In this document: one piece after another, positions 17,165-20,301 of the stretch
Layout of the letters: each line of letters begins with the position of its first letter
Position numbering within the stretch: position 1 is the stretch's first letter
Assembly (NCBI GenBank): GCA_036252695.1
Contig: GCA_036252695.1_4122.1
Length of the DNA stretch: 64,000 bases
Reading direction: 5' to 3' (one strand)
From: a phage
Made by a program: the position numbers and the translations under genes
Notes under the pieces: generated by a model
What the model was told of the DNA's origin: nothing
The model's database searches: none
What the model saw: only the letters and a program-made list of their open reading frames with translations

Positions 17165-17469
17165 AAAAATTATTAGTTCCAATGATTTCTTTTTTAATTA
17201 TAAGTGGGTGTGCCGAGCAAGTAAAACTACAATCCCCCGCACCAATTAAACAAGAAATTCTGTTAGAAAGATGTGATGATGATACACCTCTACCACAAAA
17301 AATTATGATTGACAAAAATGGTTTTAAAGGTTATGATGGTGCAGAAATTCTTAAAGTACTTACTCGTTGGGATGCAGTATACAATGAATGTGCTTTAAAA
17401 CATGACGCATTGATTAAAACTATTCGTGATTTACAAGGTAAAGATATTAAAATCAATATCAAGGAATAA
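17161..17469 (+). CDS. o-spanin (Rz1-like outer-membrane lipoprotein)
   Basis: Signal peptide with lipobox (LIISGC); small periplasmic protein directly after the i-spanin. Confidence 0.55.
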   Translation: MKKLLVPMISFLIISGCAEQVKLQSPAPIKQEILLERCDDDTPLPQKIMIDKNGFKGYDGAEILKVLTRWDAVYNECALKHDALIKTIRDLQGKDIKINIKE

Positions 17470-17470
17470 A

Positions 17471-18082
17471 ATGAACAAATATCATGTTTACTATACGACT
17501 AAATTATCACTTCTTGAAGAATTAAATCAACGAAGTACTAAGATGAAACGCTACACTTTAAATGGAATTACTTTTAGGTATTTCCCACAAAAAGTTCTTA
17601 CATTTATTAAGAATCCAAAATGCGTGGCATGTGGGATTGAAGCCACTGAAGTACGCATTGAACGTTCATTTTGTTCTGATCCAGTATATGGTAAACCACA
17701 TTTAAATATATATGCTGTATGTGGTCTTTATGAAGTGTTGATGACAGTTGATCATAATCATCTGGCATCTAAGGGTGGACCTGATTTAGAGTCAAACTTT
17801 AATACTATGTGCTCCAGATGTAATCAACTACGTTCGAATAAAACTGAAACAGTTGATGAGTTTCTTGAGAAAGTTAAAGGTCGTAATCTTCTCCAAGAAC
17901 ATATGAATAATTTCTTTAATGTACAAAAAAAGAAAAATAACATTGACAAGTCGAAACTACTAGAAGAACGTAGGTTACGTCAAGAATTATGGGAAACTGA
18001 TCATCTATGGCATGTTCGAGAGTTTGGTCGTCATATGAAAGCTTTGAAAAAAGAACAAAAGAAATTGAATAAACATGATTGA
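17471..18082 (+). CDS. free-standing HNH endonuclease
   Basis: Cys pairs plus DHNHLASKGGPD...NFNTMCSRCN (HNH motif); ORF track 17426..18082 but ATG at 17471 follows AAGGAA RBS. Confidence 0.6.
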   Translation: MNKYHVYYTTKLSLLEELNQRSTKMKRYTLNGITFRYFPQKVLTFIKNPKCVACGIEATEVRIERSFCSDPVYGKPHLNIYAVCGLYEVLMTVDHNHLASKGGPDLESNFNTMCSRCNQLRSNKTETVDEFLEKVKGRNLLQEHMNNFFNVQKKKNNIDKSKLLEERRLRQELWETDHLWHVREFGRHMKALKKEQKKLNKHD

Positions 18083-18134: not shown

Positions 18135-18407
18135 ATGAAAACTAAATTATTTCCACAACAAATAATGATTGAACTGTGCGAACATCAGTCTGGTGAAGTT
18201 GTTACAATCAGTGGTGATACGTATTCCATCATTTTAAATGAACAACAATTTGATCATACAAATCATACGAATGAACTGTATAATCTTATGTTTATGGACG
18301 ATAAGAGTGAAAAATACTATCATTGTACATATGAACGATGTATAGATACAACACCATTTTGTAATGAAATGGTTGGTGTTAAATGTTATGAATGTGAAGT
18401 GTTATGA
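18135..18407 (+). CDS. hypothetical Cys-rich protein, paralogue pair member 1
   Basis: Shares MKTK.F.PQ..M.ELCEH..G.VVTISG ... KYYHCTYER ... GVKCYE with 18428..18784. Confidence 0.5.
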   Translation: MKTKLFPQQIMIELCEHQSGEVVTISGDTYSIILNEQQFDHTNHTNELYNLMFMDDKSEKYYHCTYERCIDTTPFCNEMVGVKCYECEVL

Positions 18408-18427: not shown

Positions 18428-18784
18428 ATGAAAACAAAAATCTTTCTACCACAAACCATGATGGAACTGTGTGAACATGATGCAGGAGATGTTGTCACTA
18501 TTAGTGGTTCCTGGAATGAGAGTACTGAAGACTTTATGCCAGATGAGGTATATTCTGTTGTTTTAAATGAACAGTACAATACAAGCCGTTGGAATGAACA
18601 GTACAATCTAGTTTTTCTTGACAATAACAATGAAAAGTACTATCATTGTACGTATGAACGAGGTCTGACAGAACGTAACTACACAACTCCTTTCTGTGAT
18701 GAAATGGATGGTGTAAAGTGCTATGAAGTTTCTGTTCGTCAGGTTCCAGTTGTTACTTACAAAACCGAGTGGGATTATCTGTAA
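18428..18784 (+). CDS. hypothetical Cys-rich protein, paralogue pair member 2
   Basis: Tandem paralogue of 18135..18407. Confidence 0.5.
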   Translation: MKTKIFLPQTMMELCEHDAGDVVTISGSWNESTEDFMPDEVYSVVLNEQYNTSRWNEQYNLVFLDNNNEKYYHCTYERGLTERNYTTPFCDEMDGVKCYEVSVRQVPVVTYKTEWDYL

Positions 18785-19182
18785 TGCTTAAAGATTTAGA
18801 TTTTTCAAATTTAGAGATCATCAGTGCAGTGAAGAATATTACTGATATGGATGATGAAAAAGGTGTAATGGTAACTATCACTTTCGTAAAGGAAGAGGAT
18901 AGCTATAAGCATCTTACTGGAATTGAAGAACTAATTCATAAAACCAATCTTGAGAATGATGGTAAACTCATCAAGCTTCAGGCTTCATATACGCAAAAAA
19001 CGTCAAATTTTATAGACCTAAATAATGTAGTCAAGGTGGTATACAATCATCCTGATCACACATATAGGAACACGACAAGAAATGAAAATGTTGCTAACGA
19101 TTCGAATATTATCGAAGATGTTGAATTCATAAACACAATTTTTGATCGTTGTTCTAAGGATTTAAAAAAAGTATACATGTAA
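18784..19182 (+). CDS. hypothetical protein
   Basis: ORF track 18769 (GTG); ATG at 18784 overlaps upstream stop (TAATG). Confidence 0.45.
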   Translation: MLKDLDFSNLEIISAVKNITDMDDEKGVMVTITFVKEEDSYKHLTGIEELIHKTNLENDGKLIKLQASYTQKTSNFIDLNNVVKVVYNHPDHTYRNTTRNENVANDSNIIEDVEFINTIFDRCSKDLKKVYM

Positions 19183-19183
19183 T

Positions 19184-19211
19184 GGGACATTATATGTTCC
19201 AATGATATAAT
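19184..19211 (+). promoter_or_regulatory. sigma70-like promoter (GGGACA-N16-TATAAT with TG extension)
   Basis: -35-like GGGACA at 19184-19189, 16-nt spacer, TGATATAAT at 19203-19211; same architecture recurs at 29933 and 48945. Confidence 0.4.
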
Positions 19212-19214
19212 GTA

Positions 19215-19735
19215 TATAGAAAATGACAACGGACATTGAAAAATGGACACTGAGAACCTACTTCTCTTGAAAATGTAAAGGATAGATGAGCTTTACCGTT
19301 GTAGCGAACAGCAGAAGAAACCTGTTAGAGTACTGGCATTTAAACAAACACGATGTAAGACCACGAATCACGGCGACACGGCTGTATAAAGAACTCCGAT
19401 AAGCATACAGAGAGTTCCTAGATAGATGTATAAGGTTCGCACCTTACCAGATTTGCTAAGGGAGTTTAAGAATAGCGGACGCAATTTTACAAGAAAGTTG
19501 CGTCCAAAATTTGAGAACAGGTACTTACTTTGATCGAATAGAGTTAGTACTGAGTGCTGTTGATGAAAAGACCAGCGACCGTTGCATATGACTGCGATAG
19601 AGAGAAACCGAGCAACCCGCTTTCGCTCTCTAAATTTTGGTACAAGAAAGATCCGTCCAAAATTTGAGAAATTCGCAATTCGATAATATCCGATGCCATC
19701 ATCGTCAAGAGAGACTTAATTGTCTCTTTTTTATT
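19215..19735 (+). ncRNA. candidate structured non-coding RNA (function unknown)
   Basis: About 0.5 kb between promoter and terminator with no ORF of 60 aa or more, higher G+C than neighbours, two near-identical 29-nt direct repeats (19488-19516 and 19641-19669) each forming a hairpin. Confidence 0.3.
19709..19733 (+). terminator. rho-independent terminator
   Basis: GAGAGAC / GTCTCT hairpin (loop TTAATT) plus T6. Confidence 0.5.
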
Positions 19736-19872
19736 ACCTTCATTCCCCTGCGGGGGGATGTAATAGTCCTCAACAAATCCCGTCAAGTTTTTAAAGTACA
19801 TTATCATTTTCAGAAGGAACTAGTTTACGAAGTAAACGCAGTGACTTCTTGAGTTACGAGAGAACGAAGTGA

Positions 19873-20301
19873 ATGAGTAACACAACGAAAATATCCGATA
19901 AATCTGAATTAACACAAATGTTATTCAAAGAATATTTTGAGTTCCAGATAAAAGACGAACATCAATTACCACAGCAATATTTGAAAAGAATTAAAGATCC
20001 GTCAGTAATTACTAAAGAAACTAATTTTTATAATAGTATTTTAGATTTCGTTAAATCAGTTCATACAACAAGACCTATTGTAGTTTTGTTTTTTGATAAA
20101 TCTATTCCTTTAGTAGTTCCTGAAAATGTATTTTTTATCTCAGAAACTGATTTAAATAATCAAAGTACTGTAAGTAGATTAAGAAATTGCTTACTTGTAG
20201 TATGTGATTCTTCTTTGTATAATAATAGAATACTATGGGATAGAAGTAAACGCAATGCAGTTTCGGAAATGAATCCTGAAATTACCTTTATTATTAACTA
20301 A
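19873..20301 (+). CDS. hypothetical protein
   Basis: 142-aa ORF; weak RBS. Confidence 0.45.
   Translation: MSNTTKISDKSELTQMLFKEYFEFQIKDEHQLPQQYLKRIKDPSVITKETNFYNSILDFVKSVHTTRPIVVLFFDKSIPLVVPENVFFISETDLNNQSTVSRLRNCLLVVCDSSLYNNRILWDRSKRNAVSEMNPEITFIIN

Follow-up and report, generated by a model that had tools for sequence, protein, structure and literature searches.

The question raised by positions 19184–19870 of the DNA studied here, a 64,000-nucleotide stretch of a phage genome (contig GCA_036252695.1_4122.1 of assembly GCA_036252695.1; the whole stretch is referred to as the window), is what is encoded in a gap between two protein genes that holds no sizeable reading frame of its own. An original prediction, made from the nucleotide sequence without database searches, proposed a structured RNA equipped with a promoter, paired hairpin repeats and a terminator. 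Based on comparison with related sequences, we conclude that the locus is almost certainly a structured RNA gene; the proposal of such an RNA with its own promoter is upheld by an alignment of relatives in which 73 of 95 base pairs are doubly compensated, with controls falling far below this figure.

The locus and its relatives

The island is flanked by an open reading frame (ORF) of 137 amino acids (aa) that ends at 19182 and one of 142 aa that starts at 19873. Between 19184 and 19870 the plus strand holds only ORFs of 26–38 aa, together with a single TTG-initiated ORF of 71 aa (19637–19852) that runs across the predicted terminator, in agreement with the ORF-poor gap between two protein genes described in the original prediction. 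The raised G+C content was likewise borne out by measurement, being 0.39–0.415 over positions 19200–19800 as opposed to 0.24–0.33 in the flanks, and ARAGORN detected no tRNA or tmRNA gene in the whole window, consistent with the reported absence of a tRNA cloverleaf.

In blastn searches against phage records the region was found in 72 records. The window is 99.7% identical to phage slurp01 and derives from the genome of a Rak2-like jumbo phage (Asteriusvirus) of approximately 350 kb; on these matches the genome is Rak2-like, and the earlier framing of the locus in terms of T4 does not hold. Identities of 95–99.7% were recorded for Escherichia and Salmonella phages of the PBECO4/121Q/slurp01 group (Asteriusvirus), and of 65–80% for GAP32, Yersinia phage fHe-Yen9-04, Pectobacterium phage CBB, Serratia phage BF, Erwinia SNUABM phages, Xanthomonas phages XbC2 and XaC1 and Salmonella phage Munch. 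Klebsiella phages RaK2 and K64-1 gave a short core match only. The region matches at 4–5 places in each of the records.

No further copy of the RNA is present inside the window, its paralogs being located outside it. In the complete genome of the near-identical phage EC22.5-2, four copies with approximately 68–74% mutual identity are found near 90 kb, 143 kb (the window copy), 223 kb and 333 kb, all of them on the plus strand and in ORF-free gaps. Four copies per genome is the number in Asteriusvirus, and four to five are carried by BF, GAP32 and uncultured genomes. Scans with the core pattern of the RNA, performed on viral contigs, metagenomes and species-representative bacterial genomes, returned 47 viral loci, each on a contig of approximately 350 kb or on a fragment, 75 metagenome loci and four loci in the species-representative bacterial genomes, one of which is a chance match. 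A profile search over the collected sequences gave 136 matches (103 full length, 60 non-redundant). These sequences cluster by paralog type across genera, with GAP32, Serratia BF, Yen9-04 and CBB contributing one member to each of several clusters, which indicates that the paralogs predate these genera and were retained. One paralog lies directly downstream of the phage RpoD-like sigma-factor gene in both RaK2 and Asteriusvirus, thereby displaying synteny across genera; in slurp01 this sigma-linked paralog was deduced to occupy a 650-nucleotide (nt) gap after ‘rpoD’ (28430–30047 region).

Same-strand genes follow the window copy and several others, while Asteriusvirus paralog P3, the GAP32b and Munch copies and several uncultured (UViG) copies lie between minus-strand genes. 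Such copies between opposite-strand genes must be stand-alone transcription units, and a general role as an mRNA leader is thereby ruled out. The stand-alone copies have a 163-aa gene upstream and a 291-aa gene downstream, and the minus-strand genes flanking the Munch copy include one annotated ‘base plate’.

A fold supported by covariation

RNAalifold predicted 92 pairs from an alignment of 19 copies, 53 of them with compensatory double changes, and 71 pairs (47 compensatory) from an alignment of 32 copies. Pseudoknots were detected by an all-against-all covariation scan, and the final model, which was scored on the alignment of 32 non-redundant copies, consists of 95 base pairs (bp) in 19 helices, four of which are pseudoknots. 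Paired cells account for 95.8% in this model as compared to 38–43% when the 3′ partners are slid by 1–3 columns. Double changes occur at 73 of the 95 pairs, against 21–39 in the slid controls and a mean of 50.6 in shuffled alignments, while the covariation score of 0.547 compares with at most 0.095 and a mean of 0.180, respectively. Not one of 500 shuffles matched any of the observed measures, and the comparative check for compensatory base changes that the original prediction had called for is therefore positive.

The minimum free energy (MFE) of the window copy has a z-score of −3.52 on the plus strand as against −1.84 on the minus strand, where the signal is less clear. G-U pairs are frequent, and the structure can be assigned to the plus strand since the only changes in helix 19 are exchanges of G-C for G-U. 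Covariation that is strand-specific and tolerant of G-U is not produced by selection on duplex DNA, and the suggestion that the island is an origin or a protein-binding site leaves it unaccounted for, although an additional role of this kind is possible. No conserved ORF was found in the 60 non-redundant copies; the longest measure 22–68 aa on the plus strand and 31–113 aa on the minus strand and shift in alignment position, so that an intact protein gene in relatives, which would have counted against the original prediction, was not seen.

The element is delimited as a structured non-coding RNA at 19218–19787 on the plus strand, the strand of all features described below, on the basis of a conserved block in the four paralogs and in orthologs, covariation, MFE and the lack of a conserved ORF. 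Its 5′ end forms a leader pseudoknot (19226–19302; helices 1–3 of the model) in which ACAACGGA (19226–19233) pairs with ACCGUUGU (19295–19302) over 7–8 bp, the latter strand being situated within the apparent loop of a GCU/AGC hairpin (19290–19292 with 19303–19305). Seven of the eight pairs of the leader helix covary, with variants that include CUGCUUG/CAAGCAG, CUGAUUGA/UCAAUCAG and CAGUGUGG/CCACACG. A further hairpin of the leader region (19258–19268 with 19278–19285) bears the conserved loop GAAAAUGUA.

The central domain (19308–19446; helices 4–9) contains a helix (19308–19312 with 19381–19385) that encloses a second one (19322–19325 with 19370–19373) and a variable insert, followed by hairpins at 19391–19396 with 19412–19417, where all five pairs of the 19392–19396 part covary, and at 19431–19434 with 19443–19446. 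Covariation also revealed a 3-bp pseudoknot in this domain between ACA (19376–19378) and UGU (19427–19429), the 3-bp helix of the covariation scan being written AUR/YAU; alignment pair 234/302 of this small helix is G-C in 23 copies and A-U in nine, and is never broken. Downstream, a long hairpin (19520–19551, with 19520–19531 paired to 19540–19551; helices 11 and 12) presents the apical loop AUCGAAU (19533–19539), which forms a 7-bp pseudoknot with AUUCGAU (19678–19684). This loop-strand helix is 99.6% paired, covaries at all seven of its pairs and occurs in at least ten complementary variants.

The most conserved part of the RNA, distinguished by invariant alignment columns, is the core at 19577–19628 (GACCGUUGC...AUAGAGAGAAACCGAGCAACCCGCUUUCG), and every family member found was retrieved by its pattern. 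It is built from a pseudoknot (GUUGC 19581–19585 with GCAAC 19612–19616), a GAGAG/CUUUC helix (19600–19604 with 19620–19624) and a helix that joins 19593–19597 to 19673–19677. Helices 14–16 of the model, which belong to the core, are 100% paired and exhibit compensatory changes. Invariant unpaired segments between helices were observed throughout the RNA, these being GAAAAYGUA, AGAUGAG, GCAGAAGAAACCCG, GGCAAUGCGGC, UAUAAAG, GAUAGAYAUAU, CUAAGGGAG, CGACCGUUGC and AUAGAGAGAAACAGAGCAACCCGCUUUCG. A long-range closing helix proposed by RNAalifold (GAUGAG/CUCGUC) was not adopted, as it shows no covariation and has uncompensated breaks, and helix 15 of an earlier model, 35.9% paired through alignment offsets, was left out of the final count and analysed separately.

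Promoter and predicted transcript limits

A promoter scan identified the same site as the original prediction, namely a −35-like box GGGACA (19184–19189), a spacer of 16 nt and TATAAT with TG upstream of it, the extended −10 element being TGATATAAT at 19203–19211, and the motif proved to be conserved across copies, each paralog having a promoter of its own. TAYAAT is present in 55 of the 60 non-redundant copies, 48 of these 55 having TG at −15/−14, and a box of the form TGGGACA/TGGAACR/TGAAACN is located 13 nt upstream of the TG. In phages CBB and GAP32 a ‘divergent RpoD-like’ promoter composed of TGAAACG and a classic −10 has been described (PMC5259590), and the promoter of the RNA is, as judged from these motifs, of the same class.

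Transcription would begin near 19218 at this conserved extended −10 promoter, approximately 8 nt before the first paired nucleotide (19226). The promoter, of a class typical of phages, was placed about 7 nt ahead of the first structured nucleotides. Part of it is predicted to stop at about 19735, in the U-tract of an intrinsic terminator, thereby giving a short RNA of approximately 520 nt, while the remainder would read through into a conserved 3′ extension that includes a second CGUCAAG and would yield a long form of approximately 570 nt ending near 19787. The original prediction had taken the terminator as the 3′ limit of the element; the alignment of the four paralogs, and orthologs, place the conserved block from about 19226 to about 19787, beyond that hairpin.

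Proposed exchangeable partners at the 3′ end

The terminator-like hairpin occupies 19709–19735 (AGAGAC-TTAATT-GTCTCT followed by TTTTTTATT in the DNA), its stem being formed by 19711–19715 with 19722–19726. A hairpin directly followed by a U-run, as expected of an intrinsic terminator, is thus present at 19711–19726 plus UUUUUUAUU, and conserved RNA continues downstream of it. Four of the five pairs of the stem (helix 18) covary. The hairpin and U-run were found in 19 of the 32 copies and are absent from the other 13, which include Asteriusvirus paralogs P1 and P4, so that two of the four paralogs in this genus possess them. The intrinsic terminator of the original prediction is therefore retained with regard to its hairpin, T-run and covarying stem, and revised in that it is not the end of the element and is not called by a simple scan. 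The consensus terminator scan probably missed the hairpin at 19709–19735 as a G-T-tolerant extension of the stem consumes the T-run.

Upstream of the terminator, hairpin X1 (19692–19709) is formed by strand ‘a’ (GAUG, 19692–19695) and CGUC (19703–19706), the latter within a motif, m1, of sequence AUCAUCGUCAAG (19698–19709). Downstream of the terminator, the 3′ extension (19739–19787) consists of a C/G-rich hairpin (UUCAUUCCCC-UGCG-GGGGGGAUG, stem 19744–19748 with 19753–19757; helix 19), CCUCAACAA and a second copy of the m1 motif, m2 (AUCCCGUCAAG, 19777–19787), and is kept in all 32 copies. Motifs m1 and m2 thus lie on either side of the terminator.

These two motifs change in concert. Both start with the same triplet, AUC, ACC or ACG, in essentially all copies, with one exception, and their shared core is CGUC in most copies, CUUC in RaK2-type copies, CGAA in a divergent metagenomic class and UGUC in one paralog type, the sister paralogs of the same genomes retaining CGUC. 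As the change is specific to a paralog within a genome, the constraint must act within the molecule or locus, and a shared protein offers no explanation. Strand ‘a’ co-varies with m1 in three lineages (GAYG/CGUC; GA.AG/CUUC in RaK2; UUCG/CGAA in the divergent metagenomic class), and the simplest reading would be that m1 and m2 are alternative partners of this same strand. Elsewhere in the RNA no consistent full complementary partner of the 10-nt repeats was found, nor did comparison of the copies by eye reveal a covarying upstream partner for the arms of the terminator.

Beyond the RNA, the window has a hairpin GUUUAC-GAA-GUAAAC (19823–19837) whose membership in the RNA is uncertain. Small hairpins with a cGAAg triloop were observed downstream of the RNA in all lineages, together with repeated ACGAAGUGA-like motifs (19823–19837 and 19858–19866 in the window), and some of them covary, as in CAUUC-GAA-GAAUG, CAAUC-GAA-GAUUG and, in RaK2, UUCAC-GAA-GUGAA. 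A resemblance to the hammerhead core (GAUGAG, GAAA, GUC-A) was rejected by eye, the cyclic order being wrong and the GAA after the second stem not being conserved.

A movable hairpin module

The original prediction attached weight to two near-identical direct repeats, each thought to form a hairpin. The repeats are real (19488–19517 and 19641–19670; 30 nt, 93% identical) and their 17-nt core occurs exactly twice, two or more matches with up to three mismatches being found in six of 100 shuffles. The first repeat folds back on itself (hairpin arms 19477–19488 and 19494–19505), whereas the second belongs to a different hairpin, of which it provides chiefly the loop and the 3′ arm. Both are instances of one module, characterised by the loop UACAAUAUAG or UACAAGAAAG and the 3′ tail GUCCAAAAUU, which may occupy either of two sites. 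Site A (19475–19511) is an inverted repeat that holds the first repeat and has a base helix of 19464–19467 with 19515–19518; site B (19635–19670) holds the second repeat and is used only in the P2-type lineage and a few other copies.

Most copies bear the module at A or at B, paralog P3 and RaK2 have it at neither, and the window copy has it at both, hence its appearance as a direct repeat. Among the four Asteriusvirus paralogs the first repeat is present in three and the second in the window paralog alone. The repeats and the terminator, which had been regarded as the defining features of the island, are accordingly variable peripheral parts. Movement of peripheral elements around a fixed core is typical of RNAs with a defined tertiary fold, such as RNase P and group I and II introns.

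Comparison with known RNA families

A cmscan of the window against Rfam 15 gave no match at gathering score, and at E ≤ 10 the locus and ten divergent copies produced scattered sub-threshold hits to small RNA and small nucleolar RNA families, none of which recurred. RNase P, OLE, GOLLD, ROOL, HEARO, raiA, 6S and the riboswitches are among the families without a covariance-model match, and a full-text literature search, although partly poorly targeted, found no description of the RNA. Judged by these comparisons, it appears to be new as a family, one specific to Rak2-like jumbo phages.

Nearest to it in kind, on the features compared, are the large ornate non-coding RNAs (ncRNAs) of bacteria and phages (GOLLD, ROOL and OLE). 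In common with these and with HEARO and raiA, it has a length of 500–600 nt, many helices and pseudoknots, invariant junction nucleotides and stand-alone genes. It differs from them in that it has no sequence or structure match to their Rfam models, is hosted by jumbo phages of Enterobacteriaceae, Xanthomonas and relatives, is present as 4–5 paralogs per genome and has a conserved dedicated promoter and an internal terminator-like hairpin. GOLLD and ROOL are often encoded by phages or prophages, and ROOL, GOLLD and OLE form RNA-only multimers through intermolecular pairing, as seen by cryo-electron microscopy. By analogy, pairing of m2 with strand ‘a’ and the 7-bp loop-strand helix could act between molecules, as in ROOL, GOLLD and OLE.

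RNase P RNA and the group I and II introns are of similar size and share long-range pseudoknots and a shifting periphery around an invariant core, but there is no covariance-model match to them, their signature sequences are not conserved here and the element does not lie within a gene. A resemblance of the core segment ACAGAGCAACCCGCUUUCG to conserved regions of RNase P is backed by no model match and was set aside as an unsupported lead. The group I intron remnant considered in the original prediction was rejected, as there is no Intron_gpI match at gathering score or at E ≤ 10, and all copies are intergenic, several of them standing alone between opposite-strand genes, with no interrupted gene. 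The ATAGTCC element that had suggested an intron S element occurs in the window copy only and not in paralogs or orthologs.

Two further systems show partial likeness. The Pseudomonas jumbo phage PA5oct has ORF-free loci, ncRNA001–004, of 236–619 nt with transcription supported by RNA-seq (PMC7318152), and the 3′ end of ncRNA004 contains a small hairpin, a U-rich stretch and a 10-bp C/G-rich hairpin in the same order as here. The core motifs of the family are absent from the PA5oct ncRNAs, however, the similarity being limited to the 3′ hairpin (E = 0.02; nhmmer and motif search). The annotated ncRNA004 transcript ends after its C/G hairpin, which hints that the C/G hairpin of the present RNA may also lie within the transcript. 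The immunity region of satellite phage P4 (CI RNA; seqA, seqB and seqC) contains two direct repeats that stay identical since both have to pair with one complementary strand. Repeats in one transcript that would share a single partner, and a location in a small integrative element, are features in common; the CI RNA, however, is about 70 nt long and acts by causing termination, whereas the repeats described here flank a terminator inside an RNA of 550 nt and their proposed partner strand is immediately upstream of the first repeat.

Copies in integrative islands

A full-length chromosomal copy (75.6% identity over 86% of the query) was found in two of 5426 complete E. coli genomes, namely NZ_AP027515.1 (strain LR-29-1; 3478976–3479465 region) and NZ_CM130020.1 (245292–245781). 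The E. coli copy retains the phage-type promoter, both modules, the terminator and the 3′ extension. In LR-29-1 it is part of an island of approximately 10 kb between ffs and ybaA, which also contains a tyrosine integrase split by IS3, a resolvase, mSLOG-DUF4326, DUF488, DuOB and hypothetical proteins. In this strain the RNA is followed by non-coding DNA, approximately 700 nt long, that bears ATCGATCG-type repeats, and no jumbo-phage homologues were found for two of the hypothetical proteins of the island (303 aa and 257 aa).

In Silvania hatchlandensis a large serine recombinase is found on one side of the RNA and a CI/S24-type repressor on the other, with DarT, an ADP-ribosylglycohydrolase and a resolvase nearby, and in a metagenomic bacterial contig it lies between a tyrosine integrase and a CI-type repressor, adjoining a CorC transporter gene. 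Full-length copies with their own promoter in unrelated islands indicate that the RNA is self-contained and requires no fixed neighbour gene, and the arrangement of these loci argues that small integrative elements, which bear defence genes as well, have taken up the RNA gene in complete form. The Silvania and metagenomic loci have the same layout (integrase, RNA as a minus-strand copy, CI/S24 repressor and a 286-aa protein), and in both the RNA has a strong hairpin ahead of it and lacks the 5′ leader helix.

Proposed function and alternative explanations

We consider it probable, on balance, that the RNA encoded by this stand-alone gene acts in trans by means of a compact, pseudoknotted fold, be it as a ribozyme, a ribonucleoprotein (RNP) scaffold or a self-assembling RNA, and that the phage requires it in large amounts and produces it accordingly during infection. 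In the read-through form, m2 in the 3′ extension would replace m1 as the partner of strand ‘a’. Exchange of m1 and m2 within one molecule would constitute a conformational switch, for example between the terminated and read-through forms, while exchange between molecules would build multimers. Ancient paralogs, a dedicated promoter class, a copy adjacent to a sigma-factor gene and capture by islands suggest that the function is a core one, over which phage and host may be in contest.

Several points weigh against this interpretation. Its transcript ends, its action in trans and its catalytic or scaffolding activity are all inferred, and no homology was detected to those ncRNAs of the related phage PA5oct for which RNA-seq support exists. 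Furthermore, a terminator-like hairpin in the middle of the unit is unusual for a stable RNA gene, and carriage by islands would fit a cis element recognised by a helper phage, such as an origin, at least as well.

A bolder form of the same interpretation, which we regard as possible but speculative, holds that the RNA represents a new large catalytic or self-assembling class required for the development of Rak2-like phages, that the 3′ repeats and the 7-bp helix build multimers or mark sites of self-processing, and that Enterobacteriaceae islands captured the gene to parasitise or block phages. If true, a helper phage and satellites or defence islands would have an interface at the level of RNA. 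The known large, intricately folded ncRNA classes of bacteria and phages amount to a handful (RNase P, self-splicing introns, OLE and GOLLD/ROOL), each of which has been informative, and the covariation support for the present family is as strong as for those classes. Given that the RNA is carried by cultured phages of E. coli, Salmonella, Klebsiella, Cronobacter, Yersinia, Serratia, Erwinia, Pectobacterium and Xanthomonas, deletion, probing and imaging are feasible with standard tools.

The main rival, which we deem unlikely, is that each copy is one of several replication origins and the RNA its primer, in that the structured transcript, retained near the G-run and U-tract in a persistent hybrid with the DNA, would act as primer of the leading strand, as do ColE1 RNA II and the T4 origins that combine a promoter with an unwinding element; an infecting jumbo phage would then replicate, and possibly package, islands that bear a copy. 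The capture by islands and the promoter class would be neatly explained in this way, and complete copies do lie beside integrases in small islands without recognisable replication genes. Plasmids with T4 origins are replicated and packaged upon infection, which we count in favour of this model. It is also in keeping with the four to five dispersed copies in a genome of 350 kb and with the terminator-like hairpin and U-tract, downstream of which lie CCCC...GGGGGG and, where a copy stands alone, AT-rich non-coding DNA. In CBB, moreover, 11 of 18 promoters of the class precede genes for DNA synthesis (PMC5259590).

The likeness to ColE1 RNA II and to T4 ori(uvsY) and ori(34) extends to a promoter-driven (here predicted) non-coding transcript that measures about 500 nt and has a G-rich segment, to the presence of more than one copy in a genome, as for the T4 origins, and to potential exploitation by other replicons. 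The structure of the present RNA is, however, far more elaborate and conserved, and its four pseudoknots with covariation, invariant junctions and exchangeable peripheral module go beyond what any known primer RNA requires. Over the genome as a whole, the four copies coincide with no inflection of the cumulative GC skew, which turns at approximately 29 kb, 177 kb and 216 kb in step with blocks of gene strand.

A role in phage-host conflict, in which the phage RNA is an anti-defence decoy or inhibitor and the island copies are mimics that titrate its phage partner, sensors transcribed only upon infection or hijacking devices of satellites, strikes us as improbable. The island copies keep a phage-type promoter and reside with DarT and ADP-ribosylglycohydrolase, mSLOG-DUF4326, DUF488, DuOB, CI-like repressors and integrases, which speaks for this model; against this, island copies are rare (besides the two complete E. 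coli genomes, only three among approximately 100,000 species representatives), whereas the copies in phages are old, occur throughout the clade and are kept in synteny, which argues for a core phage function with the islands as secondary acquirers. Conflict would in any case be a use of the RNA rather than a mechanism, and as such is compatible with the trans-acting RNA favoured here.

It is quite improbable that the RNA is a cis-acting leader which modifies the polymerase or senses a ligand, whether by processive antitermination in the manner of HK022 put and EAR RNA or as a very large riboswitch, so as to permit read-through of the terminator into downstream genes. The order of promoter, structured RNA, intrinsic terminator and genes in the window and several other copies would suit such a device, as would the alternative partners m1 and m2 on the two sides of the terminator, and the two Asteriusvirus paralogs without a terminator are necessarily co-transcribed with the sequence that follows. 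Opposite-strand genes after P3, GAP32b, Munch and the UViG copies nevertheless leave nothing downstream to regulate; inspection by eye found no partner of the terminator arms with covariation, Rfam holds no riboswitch or leader family that matches, and the conserved part of about 500 nt is far above known antitermination RNAs, which measure approximately 70–120 nt.

That the island is a decayed protein gene, a group I intron remnant or a purely DNA-level protein-binding site is scarcely credible, for although some GenBank records annotate small hypothetical proteins here and the ATAGTCC of the window copy does resemble an S element, ORF length and place are not conserved, substitutions in helices are compensatory and not codon-patterned, ATAGTCC is not kept even among the four paralogs of an intergenic and sometimes stand-alone element that matches no intron family, and duplex-DNA selection cannot yield the covariation observed.

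Annotations, divergent copies and neighbouring genes

The GenBank records of 121Q (gene 516), SHEFM2K, SD-2_S15, WPEC3 and others place one to six ‘hypothetical proteins’ across the RNA locus. These are probably mis-annotations, since the ORFs in question are not conserved.

The divergent metagenomic class, for which the phage collection contains no cultured relative, keeps the core and the 3′ half of the RNA while its 5′ half has diverged. Its flanks have a G+C content of approximately 42%, CGAAG replaces CGUCA in both 3′ repeats, and its neighbours include a Thg1-like enzyme and DUF6267.

Upstream of the RNA gene in the window there is an ORF of 218 aa (17426–18082) with an HNH motif, as judged by sequence alone. 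It is followed by two tandem paralogous small ORFs of 90 aa (18135–18407) and 118 aa (18428–18784), the N-termini of which are nearly identical (MKTK.F..Q.M.ELCEH...).

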